A stretch of DNA of 64,000 nucleotides, from assembly GCA_965242595.1 (NCBI GenBank), contig OZ251464.1, forward strand, positions 1,188,301 through 1,252,300, written 5' to 3'. Shown in pieces: positions 33,450 through 43,142 of this stretch (position 1 is its first letter; each line of letters begins with the position of its first letter). Position numbers and translations under genes: made by a program. Under the pieces are notes generated by a model that did not search any database, was not told where the DNA came from, and saw nothing but the letters and a program-made list of their open reading frames with translations. This DNA is from Alphaproteobacteria bacterium (GTDB taxonomy: Bacteria; Pseudomonadota; Alphaproteobacteria; SP197).

Positions 33450-35798
33450 ATGGGGCTGGACGGGGTCGAAATCGGCCTTCTGATCGTCTTCGCCTGCCTG
33501 TTCGCCGGCATTCTCTCCGGCTATCCGGTGGCCTTCGCCATCGGTGGCGCGGCGCTGGCCGCCTTCGCCATCCTGGCGCTGCTGGGCGATGCCGGCTGGC
33601 TGGTGCGCGAGACCATCGACGACCGCAGCGACGCCTATCGCGCCCTGGTGGAAAGCGGCGTCAGCGAGCACGCCATCACCCTGTTCCGCTATCCCGATCT
33701 GCCCACCTATGCCGCGCCGCTGTTCGAAGGCGGCGCCGAGGGCGCCTTCTTCCGCACACTCGCCTTCGTCGTCAACCGCATGAACGAGCGGGTGCTGGCC
33801 GGCCAGTCGATCGAAACCCTGCTGGCGGTCGCCATGTTCGTGCTGATGGGGATCGCGCTGGAACGCTCGCGCATCGCGCAGGATCTGCTCACCACCATGG
33901 CGCGGGTGTTCGGCGCTCTGCCGGGCGGGCTGGCGGTGTCGGTGGTGGTGGTGGGCGCCTTTCTAGCGGCATCCACCGGCATCGTCGGCGCCACCGTCGT
34001 CACCATGGGCCTGCTGTCGCTGCCTACCATGCTGCGCCACCGCTATGCGCCGGAGCTCGCCACCGGCATCATCTCCGCCTCCGGCACGCTGGGCCAGATC
34101 GTGCCGCCCTCCATCGTCATCGTGCTGCTGGGCACGCTGGCGGGCGATCTCTACGCCACCGCCCAGGAAAAGCGGGCGCTGGCCGCCGGCTGCCCCGACG
34201 CGCTCACCTATCTGGGCGAGGCGGCGGTGGTCTCGGTCGGCACCCTGTTCAAGGCGGCGATCGTGCCCGGCCTGATGCTGGCTCTGCTCTATGCCGGCTA
34301 TGTCTTCGTCTATGCCCTCATGCGCCCCCACAAGGCGCCGCCGGTCCCGGCCGCTGCCGCAGGCGGGGGCGCCACCGTCGCCCTGCCGGCCAGGCTGCTG
34401 TGGCTGCTGGCCGTTCCGGCCATCGCCGTCGCCCTGGCCGGCGGGCTGTTCACCTTCGGCATGGCCGGGCCGCAGGCGCCCGATATCGCCGCCCTGCAAG
34501 GCCAGCCCCCGGCGCCGCAGCTGCGCACCCATGTCGATGAGCGCTGCCAGGCAGCGATGATCGAACTCCACGGCCAACAGGCGTGGGATCGGTCCGTGGC
34601 GGCGCAGGCGGCGCTTGCCGCCCTGGAAACCGCGCCGCCCGAACCGGAGGAGCTGGCCCGCCTGGAAGCCGAAGCGCTGGCCGCCGTGGCGCCACTGGCC
34701 GAAGGCATGGTGGTGGCGATGCTGTTTCTGGCCCTGGTCCTGGCGGTGGCGCGGGGCGTGGCGCCGGATGCGCCGGTGCTGCCGCTGCTGGCCGGCGGCG
34801 GCGGCATCCTGGCGGTGCTGGCGGCCGATGCCCTCTGGGTCGGCCCTCACACCAGCCCCGGCACGGCGGCGCTGATCTATGCGCCACCCTTCGCCGCCGT
34901 CCTCTACGGGCTGCGCCACGCGCTGAAACGGCTGGCGGCGGTGGAGCTGCTGCGGGTGGTGTTCCCGCCGCTGGTGCTGATCGTGGCGGTGCTGGGTTCC
35001 ATATTGGGCGGCATCACCAATCCCACGCCGGCGGCGGCGCTGGGCGCGGCCGGCGCGCTGATGCTGGCCGCCCATCGCAAGCTGGCAGAGGCCGGCAGGC
35101 GCCAGGGCATGCGCTTCATCCTGATGGCGGCCTTCGCCATCGTCGTCTTTCTGCTGGTGGGCGTGAACTTCGACCTCAGAACCTCCATCGAGGAGGTCGG
35201 TTTCGAAAACTGGACCGCCTTCGCGGTTGCGGCCCTGGCCTATCACCTGGCCTTCGCCGGCTTGGTCTATGCCTGCTGGGTGCTGCTGAGGGGCGGCGTT
35301 CTGACCTCGGTGGTGCGCGATACCGCCAAGGTCACCGCCATGGTGTTCGCCATCCTGATCGGCTCGCAGATGCTGAATCTGGTGGTGATCTCGTTCGGCG
35401 GCGAAACCTATATCCAGGATCTGCTGCGCTCCTTCGACGAGGAATGGATGGTCTTTCTGGTGGTGATGGCGGTGCTGTTCGTGCTGGGCTTCGTGCTCGA
35501 TTTCCTGGAGATCATCTACATCGTCATCCCCATCGTCGGCCCGGTGATCTATGGCGGCGCGCTGGATCCCAAATGGGTCACGATCATGATCGCGGTCAAT
35601 CTGCAAACCTCGTTCCTCACCCCGCCCTTCGGTTTCGCCCTGTTCTATCTGCGCGGCGTGGCGCCTCCCGGCATCACCACCGGCCAGATCTACCGCGGCG
35701 TCGTGCCCTTCGTCGTCATCCAGATGGTGGGGCTGGCCCTGATGTGGCTGGCCCCGGAGATCGTGACCTTTCTGCCAGACCTGCTGCCGGAAAACTGA
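33450..35798 (+). CDS. dctM: TRAP transporter large permease (DctM family) with a long Ala/Pro-rich inserted loop
   Basis: 782 aa, many transmembrane helices with DctM-like N- and C-terminal halves, and a roughly 200-aa low-complexity insertion in the middle. Confidence 0.8.
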   Translation: MGLDGVEIGLLIVFACLFAGILSGYPVAFAIGGAALAAFAILALLGDAGWLVRETIDDRSDAYRALVESGVSEHAITLFRYPDLPTYAAPLFEGGAEGAFFRTLAFVVNRMNERVLAGQSIETLLAVAMFVLMGIALERSRIAQDLLTTMARVFGALPGGLAVSVVVVGAFLAASTGIVGATVVTMGLLSLPTMLRHRYAPELATGIISASGTLGQIVPPSIVIVLLGTLAGDLYATAQEKRALAAGCPDALTYLGEAAVVSVGTLFKAAIVPGLMLALLYAGYVFVYALMRPHKAPPVPAAAAGGGATVALPARLLWLLAVPAIAVALAGGLFTFGMAGPQAPDIAALQGQPPAPQLRTHVDERCQAAMIELHGQQAWDRSVAAQAALAALETAPPEPEELARLEAEALAAVAPLAEGMVVAMLFLALVLAVARGVAPDAPVLPLLAGGGGILAVLAADALWVGPHTSPGTAALIYAPPFAAVLYGLRHALKRLAAVELLRVVFPPLVLIVAVLGSILGGITNPTPAAALGAAGALMLAAHRKLAEAGRRQGMRFILMAAFAIVVFLLVGVNFDLRTSIEEVGFENWTAFAVAALAYHLAFAGLVYACWVLLRGGVLTSVVRDTAKVTAMVFAILIGSQMLNLVVISFGGETYIQDLLRSFDEEWMVFLVVMAVLFVLGFVLDFLEIIYIVIPIVGPVIYGGALDPKWVTIMIAVNLQTSFLTPPFGFALFYLRGVAPPGITTGQIYRGVVPFVVIQMVGLALMWLAPEIVTFLPDLLPEN

Positions 35799-36525
35799 CC
35801 CGCCCCAGCTCGCGCCAACCGCCGGCCTCCAGCGCCTCCAGAGGGCGAAAACGGACCTTGTAGTCCATCTTCGGCGAGCCTTCGATCCAATAGCCCAGAT
35901 AGACATGGCCCAGGCCCAGGGCGCGCGCCCTGGCCACATGCCACAGGATCAGCCAGGTGCCCAGGCTGCGGCGCGCCAGCCCCGGTTCGTAGAAGGTATA
36001 GACGGCGGAAAACCCGTCGCTCAGCCGGTCGGTCAGCGCGGCGGCGACCAGCCGGCCGCTGCCGTCGCGGGCCTCCACCAGCCAGGTGGCCACCGGCGTT
36101 TCTTCCACCATGGCGCGGAAATCGGCGAACGACATCGCCGCCATGGCGCTGCCCGCATGATGCGCCCGCTGATAGCGCGCGAACAGCGCATAGTGTTCGG
36201 GCGTGGCCACCGCCGCCGCAGCGCGGACCTCCAGATCGCCGTTGCGCCGCCAGCTGCGCCGCTGCGAGCGCGACGGGCGGAACCTGGCCACCGGGATGCG
36301 CACGGGAACGCAGGCCCGGCAGCCCGCGCAGACCGGGCGATAGGCAAAGCCATGGCTGCGGCGAAACCCGGCCCCTACCAGCCGGTCGTGAAGGGCGCCG
36401 GCATCCGCCAGCCCCAGCTCGGTGACAACCTTGCTCTCCGCCCGCCCCGGCAGATAGGAGCACGGCTCTTCGCGGGTGCCGAAGAAGAAGACAGGCCCGC
36501 CGCCACTCTCATGTACCCTCGCCAC
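35716..36525 (-). CDS. bpt: arginyl/leucyl-tRNA-protein transferase (Bpt/Ate1 family)
   Basis: Bpt signatures CSYLPGR, GFRRSHGF and CxxCRxC (CAGCRAC), plus a GNAT-like C-terminal half. Start is GTG at 36525 or TTG at 36531. The 3' end overlaps the convergent dctM by 83 bp. Confidence 0.75.
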   Translation of the reverse strand: MARVHESGGGPVFFFGTREEPCSYLPGRAESKVVTELGLADAGALHDRLVGAGFRRSHGFAYRPVCAGCRACVPVRIPVARFRPSRSQRRSWRRNGDLEVRAAAAVATPEHYALFARYQRAHHAGSAMAAMSFADFRAMVEETPVATWLVEARDGSGRLVAAALTDRLSDGFSAVYTFYEPGLARRSLGTWLILWHVARARALGLGHVYLGYWIEGSPKMDYKVRFRPLEALEAGGWRELGRVSFPAAGLAERSRSPGPATSGPAPPSG

Positions 36526-36541
36526 GGCCAATCTATAACCA

Positions 36542-36552
36542 CCCCCCCCCCC
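36542..36552. repeat. C11 homopolymer (G11 on the bpt coding strand) about 12 nt upstream of the bpt start, at the island junction
   Basis: accCCCCCCCCCCCtcatcc read directly. Confidence 0.9.
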
Positions 36553-36633
36553 TCATCCACCATGCGCTTTGGCGCCTTCCGGGTGTGAATGACAACGGAA
36601 CGAGACACAAACATAGGGTGTAGGAGGGATGAA

Positions 36634-39600
36634 TCATGAGAGGTCAGGCTGCGGCGCCGTCGTCTCGCCATCCGACATCTCTTCGTCTGCCCCAGCCTCA
36701 ACGGCCTTGCGAGACTTTCGATCCTCTTCAAGAAGTCGCTCGAGTTGGTCGTGGATCCTTTTGGCAGTAGCATCGGGGTTCCGAAACCAGTCGGTCGACC
36801 AGACCCGAAGAATCGTCCAGCCAAGCTCCTCCAGCACAGCTTGGCGGAGCTTGTCGCGATCACGTGCCGTCGCTGAGGAATGATACCGAGCTCCATCGCA
36901 CTCAATGCCCGCAAGATAGTTCCCAGCAGCGTCAGGATGGATGACTCCAAGATCCACGCGAAAACCGGATACCCCGATCTGGGTGCGGATTTCCCATCCC
37001 TTTGCGCGAAACGCCTCAGCCACCGCTTCCTCGAAAGGGCTCTCCGCGGGACCGAGGGAACCTTCATCACGAGAAAACAGTGCGATGGCCCCTCGCTCTG
37101 CGTAGTCAAGAAAGCTCTTGAGGTGTTTTACCCCGTCGGCCCGTGTGCGTCCGAGATCGACCTGTTCAGCCTGGATCGAAGAAAAGACATGAAGCTCGCG
37201 GCGTGCTCGGGTGATAGCGACATTGAGGCGTCTCTCCCCTCCTGTATCGTTGATTGGGCCGAAGTTCATCGTAAGTTTACCGGCACGATCAGGTCCAAAG
37301 GTGATTGAGAATAATATCACATCGCGCTCATCTCCTTGGATGTTTTCGAGATTTTTCACAATGACTGGTTCCTCGCGCTCATCTGAAAAAAACCATTCCA
37401 GGCGAGGATCTTTTCGACAAATCTGGTCGAGAAAATCCTGGACCAGAGACTGCTGTTGAATATTGAAGGTAATGACACCAAGGCTATGGCGATCACTTTC
37501 AGGGACCGCAAGCCAATCCGTGAGGCGCTGCCTCACTACTTCAGATATTGCCTTCGCCTCCTTCTCATTCACGCGAGCCTGCCCCCGCGCGTACACTCCG
37601 TCGACTTTGTGGAATTTGACCGCTTTGGAACCGGTAGAAGGTGCCGGGAAAGTAACAAGCCTGTCATTGTAGTAAAAGTGGTTGGAGAAGGCGATGAGAG
37701 CCTCGTCGCGACTCCGGTAGTGCCATTCGAGGCGTCGCTGGCGAACTCCTGCGGTCAAGACTTCTTCCAGGATTGATGGTAAGTCGCGTTCAAACTCCAG
37801 AAAATCTTCATCTTCGTCATCGGCACGTCCAAAGAAATACGTCGGTGGAAGTTGCATAGGATCACCTACAACGATTGTCTGACGAGCTCGTGCAATGGCG
37901 CCGATTGCATCCCAGGTCGTGATTTGAGAGGCCTCGTCAAAAATGACAAGGTCGAAGGTCGTGTGATCTGCTGGGAGATACTGGGCTACAGACAGAGGAG
38001 ACATCAACACACACGGCGCAAGTTTTCCGAATGTCTTTGGAAGATTTGTCAGAAGTTGACGAATCGGCATGGAGGGGCGTTTGAGTCCAAGTTGGTGTCG
38101 GAGAATTCCGGGTTCAGATCTCCTTGTCACAACGTCTTTCGCCGGGAGCCCGTGGTCAATACGTCGCATCACCTCAGCAGGCGCAAGCTCCGCCGCGATA
38201 CCATCGAGTTTGCGGAAGTTCTCAACAACGTTTCTATGCTTCCAATGGATGAAGCGTCGAAGCTCGTCGCTTGCATCCATTGCAAGAGGTAGCCACCAAG
38301 CTGCATAAGACTGTTCGAATGCCTCTTCCGCCGACCCTTCGATTAACCCAGACTCAAGTGCCTCAAGTAGTGGACCTAGCCCACGTTGTTTCGCACGATT
38401 GGATTTTTCTACCCACTGGGCCCAGTCAACAAGGTGTGCGCGCTCGGTCACAATGGTAGACAGAGCTACCTCAATCTCCGTAACGCTCAATCCATTAGGA
38501 ATCACACCACCCTTTTGTGCAAAAGCATGAATTCCTTCACGGATTTCTTCTTCTGCAGAGAGATACGCTTTGAGAACATCGAGAAGAGCCCCGGGGGAAG
38601 CTGAACCAAGGGTGTCCATAGCCGACTCAAAGCGAATCGAATTTTCTGCTTCTGAACGTAGATTGGATACAGCTTTCCGAAATGTGATAGCCTGTCGCAC
38701 GACTTCCGTCGATTGTGTCACATCCGTTCCATCAAGAGTTTTAGCAACCTGTTCAATGGGGTTTTCGTGGATAGCACGATCTCGCTCCTGCACCACGAAA
38801 AGTGCTTTCAAGTCCACGCTAGGATCGGCTAAACCGCTGTCAGCGTAGGTTTGTAGAAGTTTCCGAACCTTCTTCTGTGCAAAAATGGAAATGGGCCAGA
38901 ATTTCGCCTGAGCTTCGCGCCAACTTACGTCCAACTGCTCAAGAGCCATTCTTCGCACCGTATCAAGCGAATAGGTAGCCATTGTGCTGGACACCGCGGT
39001 GTCGCGTTCTCTAACATCTTTCGAAAATGCTTCAGCCAGCAGTGAGAGTTGCTCGGCAGGCAAATTGGGCACAGATGAGAAATCGAGTGCAGAGCTTTCT
39101 GTACGGGATGCGAGAGCCATGAGGCGTGTGCGACGCCCGCTCTCAAGGTTCGGATTTGAACAAAGGCCGAGCCCGCGGGCGAGTGCGTGTTCCGCCTGCC
39201 TCAAACGGGTAAGTGTCGCGCGGAGGGTCTCCACAACCTCAAGGAGTTCAGTTTCCCACTTGTGGGACCAATGCTCGCCGCGAACAAAAGAAAGGGCAGG
39301 TCTGTCCTTGACTACGTCATGCGTCTGCGCAAGTTCGACGGCAAGTGACACCAAGTTTCGGTAACTCTCCACATCATGTGCGTCCTTGGAGGTGAAAGAG
39401 AGTTCGAAGAGTGCCTTGCCGCGAGCGATACGAGTCACTGCTTCAAAGACGCTGAACCCTTGAGTTCCCTTGGCGTGGAGAGCCTGAACATAGGCATTCA
39501 AACGATCTCGTGACAGCTTCAAATCTTCAGTGACTCGGATCCACTTCTTTTCGTCTGTATCGGGGGAACGATCCCATCCGCGACCGAGTTGTGCAAGAAC

Positions 39601-41892
39601 CGATTTACGGTCGGTTTTGTTTGAGTGAAGTTCGAGTACTGCATCACCAAGGCCGGTTTTTGCCAAGCGGCGATGCACAACATCGAGCGCCGCCGCTTTC
39701 TCGGCAACGAAAAGCACAGTCATACCCTCACCCAGGCACTGGGCAATGATATTGGTGATGGTCTGGCTCTTTCCGGTTCCCGGCGGTCCGATGAGGACGA
39801 AGTCACGGCCCTCCGAAGCTGCAACGACTGCGGCAAGCTGTGAACTGTCCACCGACAACGGGGTAAGGAGGTCCCGTGGGGTGCGACGTTGATCAATCTC
39901 TTCTGGGGCGATATCGATGCCCGATTCAGATCTTTCGTGTGAGTATTCAGTCTCGCCGATAAGATATTTCACCAAACGATTCTTGCGAAGCTCCCTTTCG
40001 CGATCAACAAGATCTTTCCACATCAAATATTTTGCAAAAGAAAACGTCGAAAGTGCCAATTCCTCAACCACTTCGAAGCCTGTGATGTTGCGCACCTTGC
40101 GACGTATAGTGTCGAAAACAAGCGGAAGATCAATGCCACTCTCGTCGCGTGGTAACTCACCCTCAAGTTCCGGGATTCGAAGATCAAAGTCTCGCTTCAG
40201 GAACTCCAATAGAGTGAGATTAAATCGGACGTCGTCTTCGTGGTGCGCGATTCGAAAGGGAGATTGGGCGGAACGGCGTTCGAGTTTGGTTGGCACCAGG
40301 ATTAAAGGCGCATGATAAAGGCGCGTATCGCCTTCCGTCCTCTTCCAGCGCAGGAATCCTGCAGCGAGGAAGAGTGTGTTCGTGCCACCTTCCTGCATGT
40401 CGCTCTTTGCGCGGCGGTAGAGGGTTAGCAGGCGGCTATTCATCTCTTTGCTAGTGAGTGGAACGACGAGTTGACGACACTCGAAGGCATCACGAATTAC
40501 ATCTTCCTCTATTCGTTGCGCTTCTTGAGGGGAGACGGTACGGTTGCCAATAGGATCCTCGTCGTTGAGCGAAAGTGTGCGGAACTTCTTTCCGGCAGCG
40601 AGAGCGTCTTCGAGAGTGCCAACATCGGGGCAGCGCAGAGGCAGGGTCTGCTTACTTTCACGGTAGTTGAGAAGTCGATTACGAAGCGAGAGGTCAAGAA
40701 GCTTGCGCTGCCAGCGTTTGATTCGATCCTGGGGCGTGTCTGGTTCCTCTTCTCCAATCTCGCTCGGAAGAAGGCCGAAATCGGGTAATGGTGGAAGGGC
40801 GGCGGGTTTCACGTCGTCCGATGAGCTGGAATCGGGCGAATCCGGTGCTCTGTGGCTCGCGAGCGGGCGAATCCGCGCCGAACGGGAGCGCGAGATATCA
40901 ACTGCGATCACGAACTCCGGGTCGCGGTCCTCCGAGAAACGACGTCGGCCCTCGTCGACTGCTTGATCAAAACGAATCGAAGGTCGGCTGGTCAAGAGGG
41001 TAGTTTCGATTGGCACGAACTCCCGGGCTTGCACAGCCTTGCGGATGGCGACCACATCGGGCTCCGTCACATGGCCGAAATCTCGTTTGCAAACCCAGAC
41101 GCCGACCCAGGCATGACCTTGAGAGAACAGGACGACCGAATTGAGACCGGCAGCCTCGAAGGCTGCGGCAAGGAAAAGGGAAGAATCGAGGCAAGTCGCA
41201 AGACCCTCCCTTGTCATCCGGCCAGGGCTCCGAATTTTTTGACCCTCCCGTTCGAACGAGGTGGGTGGTTCGGCATATGTGAGTCCCAAGCCAGTGGTGG
41301 CCGACCAGATGGCGGCGGCAAGAAGATATGCACGCCTTGGGTCTCCAGACTGATAGCCGTTCATTGAACCGTCCCGGCCCGCGGCTTCCAGAATCCGCGC
41401 CGCGTCTTTCACCACATCTGCAATAGCCGAATCGTTCGGAGAGACGAACGCCGCAAGAATCTGGGCCATGTCGCCCACTCCACCCCACTCGTCGCGCGCA
41501 AGAAGGTCGATCTGGCACTTCTCCTTGAGTGTTGGAATGTCCTTTGCCTCTAAGCTGAACTCGAGTTCTCCAACCTCCGCTTCGTCGAGGCCTGCCAAGT
41601 GTTCGATATCGAGGGACGTGGTCATGTCGCGGACCGCGAACTCCTCCCCACTCCCGATCCGATCGACGTTCCATATCTTCTCTCGGATGACGGGCGGTGC
41701 GGAACGGAGCGTGATCCGCACATCCGTGAGGGCCTCAGCAGTAAGGTTGTTAATCGCGAGCCGCTCGATGATCGTGACGCCGTTCTGGGCGGAGGCAAAG
41801 TTGACCCTCCGCAAAACTTGATGCTGGAGAGATACGACGCCGGATTCCTTCTGCCCGCCGTGAACATCGATGTTGTTGTTATCGTTTGACAA
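36634..41892 (-). CDS. giant multidomain protein: TGc-like domain, DUF4011-like region, Upf1-like SF1B helicase, C-terminal Vsr/DUF559-like endonuclease; candidate defense helicase-nuclease
   Basis: Upf1-like SF1B helicase motifs: Walker A VLIGPPGTGKSQTI; FDLVIFDEASQIT (motif II); TIVVGDPMQLPP (III); YRSRDEALIAFSNHFYY (IV); QGDERDVILFS; NVAITRARREL (VI). DUF4011-like LLDLSLRNRLLNY upstream of the helicase. C-terminal GFRVDLGV...YLAGIECDGARYHSS..RDRDKLRQAVLEELGWTILRVWSTDW is DUF559/Vsr-like (REase_MTES_1575-type). N-terminal GLATCLDSSLFLAAAFEAAGL ... GHAWVGVWV ... PIETT looks like a transglutaminase-core Cys/His/acid triad. GC is about 50% against about 68% in the flanks. The listed ORF begins at a TTG at 41985; a better start is the TTG at 41890-41892, 8 nt after GGAGGAG (41901-41907), exactly where GC drops. 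Confidence 0.85.
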   Translation of the reverse strand: MSNDNNNIDVHGGQKESGVVSLQHQVLRRVNFASAQNGVTIIERLAINNLTAEALTDVRITLRSAPPVIREKIWNVDRIGSGEEFAVRDMTTSLDIEHLAGLDEAEVGELEFSLEAKDIPTLKEKCQIDLLARDEWGGVGDMAQILAAFVSPNDSAIADVVKDAARILEAAGRDGSMNGYQSGDPRRAYLLAAAIWSATTGLGLTYAEPPTSFEREGQKIRSPGRMTREGLATCLDSSLFLAAAFEAAGLNSVVLFSQGHAWVGVWVCKRDFGHVTEPDVVAIRKAVQAREFVPIETTLLTSRPSIRFDQAVDEGRRRFSEDRDPEFVIAVDISRSRSARIRPLASHRAPDSPDSSSSDDVKPAALPPLPDFGLLPSEIGEEEPDTPQDRIKRWQRKLLDLSLRNRLLNYRESKQTLPLRCPDVGTLEDALAAGKKFRTLSLNDEDPIGNRTVSPQEAQRIEEDVIRDAFECRQLVVPLTSKEMNSRLLTLYRRAKSDMQEGGTNTLFLAAGFLRWKRTEGDTRLYHAPLILVPTKLERRSAQSPFRIAHHEDDVRFNLTLLEFLKRDFDLRIPELEGELPRDESGIDLPLVFDTIRRKVRNITGFEVVEELALSTFSFAKYLMWKDLVDRERELRKNRLVKYLIGETEYSHERSESGIDIAPEEIDQRRTPRDLLTPLSVDSSQLAAVVAASEGRDFVLIGPPGTGKSQTITNIIAQCLGEGMTVLFVAEKAAALDVVHRRLAKTGLGDAVLELHSNKTDRKSVLAQLGRGWDRSPDTDEKKWIRVTEDLKLSRDRLNAYVQALHAKGTQGFSVFEAVTRIARGKALFELSFTSKDAHDVESYRNLVSLAVELAQTHDVVKDRPALSFVRGEHWSHKWETELLEVVETLRATLTRLRQAEHALARGLGLCSNPNLESGRRTRLMALASRTESSALDFSSVPNLPAEQLSLLAEAFSKDVRERDTAVSSTMATYSLDTVRRMALEQLDVSWREAQAKFWPISIFAQKKVRKLLQTYADSGLADPSVDLKALFVVQERDRAIHENPIEQVAKTLDGTDVTQSTEVVRQAITFRKAVSNLRSEAENSIRFESAMDTLGSASPGALLDVLKAYLSAEEEIREGIHAFAQKGGVIPNGLSVTEIEVALSTIVTERAHLVDWAQWVEKSNRAKQRGLGPLLEALESGLIEGSAEEAFEQSYAAWWLPLAMDASDELRRFIHWKHRNVVENFRKLDGIAAELAPAEVMRRIDHGLPAKDVVTRRSEPGILRHQLGLKRPSMPIRQLLTNLPKTFGKLAPCVLMSPLSVAQYLPADHTTFDLVIFDEASQITTWDAIGAIARARQTIVVGDPMQLPPTYFFGRADDEDEDFLEFERDLPSILEEVLTAGVRQRRLEWHYRSRDEALIAFSNHFYYNDRLVTFPAPSTGSKAVKFHKVDGVYARGQARVNEKEAKAISEVVRQRLTDWLAVPESDRHSLGVITFNIQQQSLVQDFLDQICRKDPRLEWFFSDEREEPVIVKNLENIQGDERDVILFSITFGPDRAGKLTMNFGPINDTGGERRLNVAITRARRELHVFSSIQAEQVDLGRTRADGVKHLKSFLDYAERGAIALFSRDEGSLGPAESPFEEAVAEAFRAKGWEIRTQIGVSGFRVDLGVIHPDAAGNYLAGIECDGARYHSSATARDRDKLRQAVLEELGWTILRVWSTDWFRNPDATAKRIHDQLERLLEEDRKSRKAVEAGADEEMSDGETTAPQPDLS

Positions 41893-41964
41893 TTTCTTCT
41901 CTCCTCCAGGCTTCCCCTTCGGGGGATCCCGGCTGCTCGACACCCCGAATGCGCCCCGCGAATC

Positions 41965-41992
41965 TTCTAAGGCCGAACGCAGCAATTTTCAA
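41965..41992 (-). promoter_or_regulatory. candidate sigma70-like promoter for the island gene (TTGAAA-N16-TTAGAA)
   Basis: On the minus strand: TTGAAA (complement of 41987-41992), a 16-nt spacer, then TTAGAA (complement of 41965-41970). It lies about 75 nt upstream of the proposed TTG start, and a small CCCCC-GAA-GGGG hairpin sits in the leader. Motif-by-eye only. Confidence 0.25.
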
Positions 41993-42317
41993 GTCAGCCC
42001 TGGAGAGCGATCTGGGCGGTCAGTCGGGCCGATGCCGGCTATCCACAGCACATGGGAGGAGGTCTCCAAGGGCAAGCATCACCGCCCCTCTATGAATTCG
42101 GTGAAACCGCGACGCTCGACGGAGGGCTGGTGGTGATCGGCTCCAGAAAGGTGGATGCTGGGTTGGTGGCTCATGCGGGTGCTTTGCAGGCAGGCGGCAG
42201 GCTGGTCCTGATTTGTCCCGCCGCCCGTCACGAGCTTCCCCGCGCCCACCTACCGCGCCGTTGCCGCCCCGTCCGGCCTCTGCTATCGCTCGTCCCGGCA
42301 GCGGCAGCGGGGGCGCC

Positions 42318-43142
42318 ATGTTCGCAAGGACGCTGGCAGGCTTGAGGGCGGCGGGCGAAGAGAAGGTCGTCGCCCACGGCAAGGCGCGGGTGGTGCGCCT
42401 GGTGACGCGCCGCGACGGCATGGGCTTTTCCATGTCGGATGTGCGCGTCGCTGCCGGCGTGGTGAGCGAGCTTTGGTATAAACACCATTGGGAAGCCAAC
42501 TACATCGTCGCCGGCACCCTGGGCGTGGAGGAGGTGAACGGCGGGCGTTCCTGGACCCTGGGGCCGGGCGGCCTCTATTGCGTCGGGCCTCGCGACCGCC
42601 ACCGCCTGCGCGCGGTGAGCGATGTGCAGGCCGTCAGCATCTTCAATCCGCCGCTGACCGGCGACGAAAACCACGACAACGACGGCGCCTATCCGCCCGG
42701 CGGCGATGTTCCGGAGGGCCAGCCAGCGATGTTCGTGCGCACGCTTGCCGAGCTGCGCGCCGCCGGGCGGGAGATGACGGTGGCCGATGGCAGCGCCCGC
42801 AGCCTGCGCATGGCGCTGAAGGCCGACGGGCTGGGTTTCTCGGTCAGCGATGTCCGGCTGGCGGCCGGCAGCCGCAACAGGCTTTGGTATAAGAACCATT
42901 GGGAGGCCAACTATGTCCTGGCGGGCAAGGGCGCCGTCACCGCCCTGGCAACGGGCCAGGAATGGGCCCTGGCGCCCGGCATGCTCTATTGCGTCGGCCC
43001 CAGCGACCGCCACGCCATGCACGCCCACAGCGATCTGCACCTGGTCTCCATCTTCTGCCCGGCGCTGATGGGCCACGAACAGCACGACGCCGAAGGCAGC
43101 CTGGCCGCCAGCGGCCCCGTGCCGCCCGGCCCTTCCGCCTGA
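42318..43142 (+). CDS. tandem double-cupin protein with two ectoine synthase (EctC)-like domains
   Basis: Two consecutive copies of about 137 aa, each with the EctC-like WYKHHWEANY(I/V)(V/L)AG and L(Y)CVGP(R/S)DRH motifs. No ectA or ectB nearby. The ORF begins at 42213, but MFARTL (42318) matches the start of the second copy (MFVRTL). Confidence 0.7.
   Translation: MFARTLAGLRAAGEEKVVAHGKARVVRLVTRRDGMGFSMSDVRVAAGVVSELWYKHHWEANYIVAGTLGVEEVNGGRSWTLGPGGLYCVGPRDRHRLRAVSDVQAVSIFNPPLTGDENHDNDGAYPPGGDVPEGQPAMFVRTLAELRAAGREMTVADGSARSLRMALKADGLGFSVSDVRLAAGSRNRLWYKNHWEANYVLAGKGAVTALATGQEWALAPGMLYCVGPSDRHAMHAHSDLHLVSIFCPALMGHEQHDAEGSLAASGPVPPGPSA

Follow-up and report, generated by a model that had tools for sequence, protein, structure and literature searches.

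What occupies the N-terminus of a large bacterial helicase-nuclease whose first 427 residues match nothing in Pfam? The question is raised by a 64,000-nucleotide stretch of the genome of an Alphaproteobacteria bacterium (contig OZ251464.1, positions 1,188,301 to 1,252,300 of the forward strand; hereafter, the window), in which one continuous minus-strand open reading frame (ORF), 36634-41985, encodes 1783 amino acids (aa) as counted from the TTG at 41985; the protein belongs to the NCBIfam family NF058533, "anti-phage protein ProA". A first-pass annotation, made from the sequence, had placed a transglutaminase-core (TGc)-like domain in front of the helicase-nuclease on account of three motifs, namely a Cys box, a His box and an acidic residue in PIETT. 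All three are present in the translation of this ORF, where their positions were checked codon by codon (Table 1), and the proposed domain is supported by an AlphaFold2 (AF2) model, by structure comparison and by the conservation of the proposed catalytic triad. The probable answer is that ProA contains, as an integral part, a domain of TGc fold with a preserved catalytic site. Residues are numbered from the TTG at 41985; the numbering of the likely product is lower by 31.

Predicted fold and catalytic residues of the N-terminal module

The AF2 model covered aa 42-445 and was built from an alignment of 62 homologues; the mean predicted local distance difference test (pLDDT) score was 91.1 over this range and 92.6 for the isolated domain. 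The predicted module starts with an immunoglobulin (Ig)-like beta-sandwich, which accounts for ~120 residues of the N-terminal stretch that the first-pass annotation had been unable to place, and it continues with an alpha+beta domain of the TGc, or papain-like, type. A linker follows, with block-mean pLDDT values mostly of 63-83 (one block reached 93) and with variable columns in the alignment consensus, and beyond it the model enters the first helix of DUF4011.

As for the nature of the alpha+beta domain, Foldseek run with the whole model returned TG2 and TG3 at E about 1e-4, and the structure-comparison list was almost purely made of TGc-superfamily proteins; the scores were 8.1-9.2 for axonemal TGc-domain proteins, 8.4 for both PNGase and TglA, 7.9 for PeiW, 7.7 for both Rad4/XPC and a bacterial TGase, 7.5 for TG2 and TG3, and 7.3 for LapG. 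Arylamine N-acetyltransferases, which have the same fold, ranked after the TGc proteins. By this comparison, the domain has the helix bearing the nucleophile packed on an antiparallel sheet, as in the TGc/papain-like fold. The DSSP assignment places the start of a helix exactly at Cys265 and the start of a strand at His291, and Glu327 follows the next long strand; these secondary-structure positions reproduce the order of the TGc catalytic residues (Cys at the helix start, His on a strand, acid on the next strand), all of them conserved. In the model, the Cys-His-Glu arrangement appears canonical for TGc and the active site appears intact.

To assess conservation, the database was searched with a profile restricted to the N-terminal module, which matched 6,070 cluster representatives (50% identity) at E <= 0.001, and residues were counted in 135 informative cluster representatives (<=50% mutual identity) that were aligned back to the profile. 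The first-pass annotation had named triad conservation among homologues as one check of its proposal, and the outcome was favourable: Cys265 and His291 are found in 135 of 135 representatives, and the column of Glu327 is acidic in 134 of 134, with 127 Glu and 7 Asp. In the Cys box, GLATCLDSSLFLAAAFEAAGL, Glu277 is likewise kept in 135/135 and Asp267 is near-invariant (133 Asp and 2 Glu), while Trp297 of the His box is kept in 134/135. Upstream of the Cys helix, the family signature YAEPPTSFEREGQKIR includes Gly248, Gln249 and Arg252, which are invariant (135/135 each) and also kept in Microbacterium and Acinetobacter; Gln249 is a candidate for the oxyanion-hole residue. Cys, His and Glu are still present in the ~30%-identical homologues from the latter two genera, and this persistence, together with the counts for the triad, shows that the motif pattern is more than chance would produce. 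One detail of the first-pass annotation did not hold: the His box follows the Cys box after 8 residues and not after about 15, and 26 positions separate the Cys from the His.

Glu327 of PIETT, the residue proposed at the outset, is the best candidate for the acid of the triad, and conservation favours it over the other option, Asp310. The latter is disfavoured because its column is less conserved (Asp in 103 sequences, Glu in 20 and other residues in about a dozen) and because a homologue from Microbacterium, in which Cys, His and Glu are all retained, has Ala at this position.

The evidence for the TGc relationship is structural, since Pfam, PDB profile searches and hhalign fail to detect it; judged only from motifs or from sequence statistics, the similarity to TGc is not significant. 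Several points weigh against the assignment or against the role built on it. The N-terminus has no Transglut_core match in Pfam even at E <= 10, and the window protein thus stays below the gathering threshold of PF01841. No relevant PDB sequence was retrieved with the profiles of two family alignments, and the hhalign comparisons of the family profile with core segments of TG2 and of the yeast PNGase were insignificant (E 0.16 and 0.71, respectively). A rival candidate for the acid, Asp310, lies 19 residues from His291, the canonical His-to-Asp spacing for TGc. Moreover, a TGc fold need not be catalytic, since in Rad4/XPC and in protein 4.2 it acts as a binding domain, and the anti-phage role is taken from the NCBIfam label and from a PADLOC candidate model.

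A few fainter sequence-level signals were recorded. In the insignificant hhalign alignment with TG2, the two His boxes were paired in register. PF04473, "Transglutaminase-like domain", gave weak sub-threshold matches in 10 of the 62 homologues, and in the one homologue where the match was located it spanned the Cys-to-His stretch. DUF6197 matched weakly in 19/62 homologues (best E 2.4e-5); in the two for which the match was located (P0053 and P0064, aa ~151-211; window ~41250-41430), it falls in the helical part that immediately precedes the Cys, so that DUF6197 may be a related, unrecognised TGc-like family. A canonical TGc gene was sought by regular expressions in the window and in 81 fetched loci, and none was found. 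The TGc assignment of this module is absent from Pfam and is not recovered by PDB sequence searches.

The module within the ProA family

The window protein scored 1971 bits with the NF058533 equivalog model, whose cut-off is 1500, and its relatives scored 1926-2336 bits. The alignment runs from aa 62 to 1767, over positions 1-1722 of the 1903 in the model, so the model includes the N-terminal region, and the beta-sandwich and TGc-like module correspond to its positions 1 to about 370. Given that the model covers the module and that thousands of relatives carry it, the fusion is no oddity of the window gene, which adds a further member to an already known, curated family and displays the normal architecture of that family. 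The first-pass annotation had called such a fusion unusual for Upf1-like defence helicases; this is true only in comparison with Hhe and with PDC-S37 as modelled, whereas for ProA it is the standard design.

The family has two size classes: the longer proteins end with DUF3320, and the shorter ones, of ~1,720-1,800 aa and with the window gene among them, end after the nuclease. The NF058533 match of the window protein accordingly stops at position 1722, ahead of the DUF3320 region (positions about 1723-1903), and another relative of the short class, P0128, likewise has no DUF3320.

Among the best 150 of the 6,070 representatives, the complete proteins have about 1,730-2,400 aa and carry the module at the N-terminus; in most of 80 fetched loci, the module heads a single ORF of 1,720-2,170 aa. 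In a scan with one genome per species, the module occurred in more than 549 species, with taxa that include Alpha- and Gammaproteobacteria, Nitrospirales, Binatia, Acidobacteriota, Planctomycetota, Rhodothermales and Desulfovibrionaceae, and it was found on 82 plasmids, including those of Klebsiella, Raoultella and Acinetobacter. No neighbour gene was conserved across the 69 loci compared, ProA needs no partner gene, and an annotated copy on a Paracoccus plasmid stands alone.

Some individual loci deserve a description. In 18 of the 69 loci, the 3.5 kb upstream of ProA include genes for an SbcD-like metallophosphoesterase and an AAA_27 (SbcC/YhaN-like) ATPase, which in most cases share its strand; examples come from Rhodobacterales, the locus that was examined (L033:5240-9955) is from a Gemmobacter metagenome-assembled genome (MAG), and the pair is absent from the window. 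On the Microbacterium chocolatum plasmid NZ_CP015812.1 (L082, 5173-10093), the annotation shows three consecutive genes, for the module, for a DUF4011 protein and for a DEAD/DEAH helicase, the first two of which overlap; Cys, His and Glu are kept, and the locus is either a split or a frameshifted ProA. The MAG chromosome OZ253490.1 (L008 and L011) carries two copies of the gene in one alphaproteobacterial genome, one of full length (~2,170 aa) and the other truncated at ~1,160 aa. In the phage collection, the sole record with the N-terminal module was H26 (MT836269.1, 10326-11300; 32% identity, E 1e-47), an unannotated 11.4-kb "Bacteriophage sp." contig from human faeces, which may be a misclassified bacterial fragment.

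Possible function of the module and competing explanations

Most microbial TGc domains are predicted peptidases or amidases. The TGc-like domain of ProA, placed in a single-gene protein after the Ig-like beta-sandwich and joined by a flexible linker of ~55 residues to DUF4011, the Upf1-like superfamily 1 (SF1) helicase and the Vsr-like PD-(D/E)xK nuclease, would then be a catalytically active thiol enzyme, for which peptidase or amidase activity is the most likely. Through the cleavage or modification of a phage protein, of a host protein or of the linker of ProA itself, such an enzyme could serve to sense infection or to license the effector, and the helicase-nuclease would be the nucleic-acid-degrading effector, as is assumed for the related Hhe. 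A protease-switch step of this kind is put forward only as a tentative possibility. The complete scheme, in which ProA would be a protease-gated helicase-nuclease and, on infection, a TGc-like cut of a phage protein or of the linker at aa 372-427 would license helicase and nuclease, is a bolder extrapolation from the invariant Cys-His-Glu site and must be considered doubtful. If true, ProA would be the counterpart, in a single polypeptide, of protease-activated defence effectors, and the TGc domain would have a catalytic role in prokaryotic immunity, of which no description was found in the literature searched.

Among the alternatives, the domain might have the TGc fold and yet be no enzyme, serving instead as a scaffold that binds DNA or protein. 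There are precedents for this in Rad4/XPC, whose TGc-like domain helps to clamp DNA, and in erythrocyte protein 4.2; both, however, are TGc domains that have lost the catalytic residues, while in the ProA module Cys and His are invariant and the acid is kept throughout the <=50%-identity clusters and down to 30% identity. A purely structural role, of the kind seen in Rad4/XPC, is hard to reconcile with a triad so strictly kept and is an unlikely explanation.

An active Cys-His enzyme with another chemistry was also considered, namely an acyl or acetyl transferase resembling the arylamine N-acetyltransferases (NATs), a cross-linking transglutaminase or a deamidase. The closest structural neighbours (3kd4, PNGase, PeiW and LapG) are annotated as proteases, amidases or isopeptidases, and the helical N-terminal region matches DUF6197 weakly and has no match to NAT-specific domains; a transferase, transglutaminase or deamidase is regarded as quite improbable. 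Finally, the notion that the N-terminal region is a separate gene, joined to the helicase-nuclease in the window only by an annotation or assembly artefact, could draw on the relatives that are short ORFs, on the three consecutive, overlapping genes of Microbacterium plasmids and on several truncated long-read MAG loci, but it is effectively refuted by the continuity of the ORF in the window, by the single ORF found in most of the 80 loci and by the ProA model, one match of which covers both parts.

Returning to the TGc-like thiol enzyme, its interest lies in the distribution of the family. ProA-type proteins are widespread, as the counts of cluster representatives, species and plasmids given above indicate, and no description of their mechanism was met in the literature reached; a beta-sandwich and TGc-like domain with a strictly conserved site offers a concrete starting point for tests of how this abundant defence protein works. 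For annotation purposes, the N-terminal region, now devoid of a Pfam domain, could be modelled as one. For the window itself the result is an ordinary one, since the gene is typical of its family and was apparently acquired as an island of one gene, and it does not define a new kind of system.

The gene in the window and its relation to known systems

Table 1. Coordinates of the gene, its domains and its motifs in the window; residues are numbered from the TTG at 41985.
Feature	Residues (aa)	Position	Strand	Basis or remark
ProA-family anti-phage helicase-nuclease		36634..41985	-	Complete ORF; NCBIfam NF058533 and PADLOC PDC-S37 matches
Translation start (probable)		41890..41907	-	GGAGGAG at 41901-41907, 8-nt spacer, TTG at 41890-41892
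Ig-like beta-sandwich, N-terminal (predicted)	51-161	41503..41835	-	AF2 model, Foldseek
Transglutaminase-like (TGc / papain-like) alpha+beta domain (predicted)	162-371	40873..41502	-	AF2 model, structure comparison
Family signature YAEPPTSFEREGQKIR	237-252	41230..41277	-	Upstream of the Cys helix
Cys box GLATCLDSSLFLAAAFEAAGL	261-281	41143..41205	-	Putative nucleophile Cys265 at 41191-41193, helix N-terminus
His box GHAWVGVWV	290-298	41092..41118	-	His291 at 41113-41115, first residue of a beta-strand
PIETT	325-329	40999..41013	-	Glu327 at 41005-41007, directly after a beta-strand
Linker, variable, Pro/Ser/Asp-rich	372-427	40705..40872	-	Between the TGc-like domain and DUF4011
DUF4011	428-596	40198..40704	-	Pfam PF13195, E 2.5e-46
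Upf1-like SF1 helicase core	707-1606	37168..39867	-	Pfam AAA_11, AAA_12, AAA_30, AAA_19
MTES_1575 / DUF559 (Vsr-like, PD-(D/E)xK) nuclease, C-terminal	1651-1748	36742..37035	-	Pfam PF18741, DUF559

The part of the protein downstream of the module was assigned by sequence. The helicase core scored 65.9 bits with AAA_11 and 60.4 bits with AAA_12, against a Pfam cut-off of 27 bits, and its PDB sequence matches were IGHMBP2, Sen1, Upf1 and DNA2; the translation contains the Walker A motif GPPGTGKS, then an insert of ~480 aa, followed by DEASQ, VGDPMQLPP, QGDERD and NVAITRAR, so that Walker A, Walker B and motifs III-VI of an Upf1-like SF1 helicase are all in place. The ~480 residues between the Walker A and B parts (37900-39400, aa ~850-1330) have no Pfam match and represent a large insertion within the first RecA-like domain. 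The nuclease scored 122.4 bits with PF18741, whose cut-off is 38.2, which identifies it as MTES_1575/Vsr-like; the protein ends shortly past it, and Pfam found no DUF3320.

The true product is probably of 1752 aa and starts at TTG 41892, a start favoured by the GGAGGAG located 8 nt upstream and by the ~30 residues that it leaves ahead of the N-x-A-S-x-Q-N motif, as in the homologues, where the alignment shows about as many residues before this conserved motif. The left edge that the first-pass annotation had given to the domain, 41892, coincides with this most plausible start codon. An exact look-up of the 1752-aa product matched no entry.

Regarding its surroundings, the stretch with the ProA gene (36550-42200) has a G+C content of 47-60%, compared with ~70% for the surrounding region and the genome. 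The gene lies alone; its neighbour on one side is an arginine-tRNA-protein transferase gene (35716-36531), and on the other side a double ectoine-synthase-like cupin gene (42213-43142), after which come AlgH-like and peroxiredoxin genes; at the borders of the low-G+C island there was no tRNA gene, integrase, flanking direct repeat or convincing promoter or terminator. Based on the low G+C, the isolated position and the unmarked borders, the ProA gene seems to be an island of a single gene, obtained by horizontal transfer. The product of the neighbouring plus-strand gene 42213-43142 (309 aa) has two tandem Ectoine_synth/cupin repeats, matched by Pfam as two stretches, and represents a fused duplication of EctC, which is usually a single-domain protein of ~130 aa.

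With respect to known systems, the window protein shares with ProA (NF058533) the domain order DUF4011, Upf1-like helicase and MTES_1575 nuclease, and it differs from most members of the family by not having the C-terminal DUF3320 region. No paper defining ProA or PDC-S37 was found in the literature searched. "Prometheus" is the name of a DefenseFinder system that genome surveys find common in Pseudomonas and in archaea; NF058533 may be the Prometheus of recent DefenseFinder releases, although this is a guess. The PADLOC model PDC-S37 matches the protein very strongly (E=0) from DUF4011 through the nuclease; it starts at DUF4011, with aa 419 of the window protein at model position 7, and the TGc-like module is hence not part of it.

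Hhe, reportedly described by Gao et al. in 2020 as a single-gene defence with a helicase and a Vsr-like endonuclease, is also related. Hhe (NCBIfam NF042953, PADLOC Hhe) has in common with the window protein DUF4011, the Upf1-like helicase, the Vsr-like nuclease and the single-gene nature, but the protein scored only 818 bits with NF042953, whose cut-off is 2000 bits, and the best-scoring aligned stretch was C-terminal only, aa 1087-1764. Hhe is reported to be triggered by phage genes and to be toxic upon expression of a trigger (bioRxiv 10.1101/2024.10.10.617714).

As for the TGc superfamily (PF01841 and relatives, PNGase, LapG, PeiW and BDI_1141, 3kd4), the module has the same core fold, as predicted here, and shares the nucleophile Cys at the N-terminus of a helix with His and an acid on adjacent strands; animal transglutaminases, like the window protein, have a beta-sandwich ahead of the core. 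It differs from the superfamily in that the putative acid is Glu and not Asp, placed 36 residues from the His across an inserted loop and helix, and in having its own signature, YAxPPxSFxxxGQKxR. Rad4/XPC is likewise a DNA-handling protein in which a TGc fold is embedded; it is without the catalytic residues, whereas the ProA module keeps them invariant.

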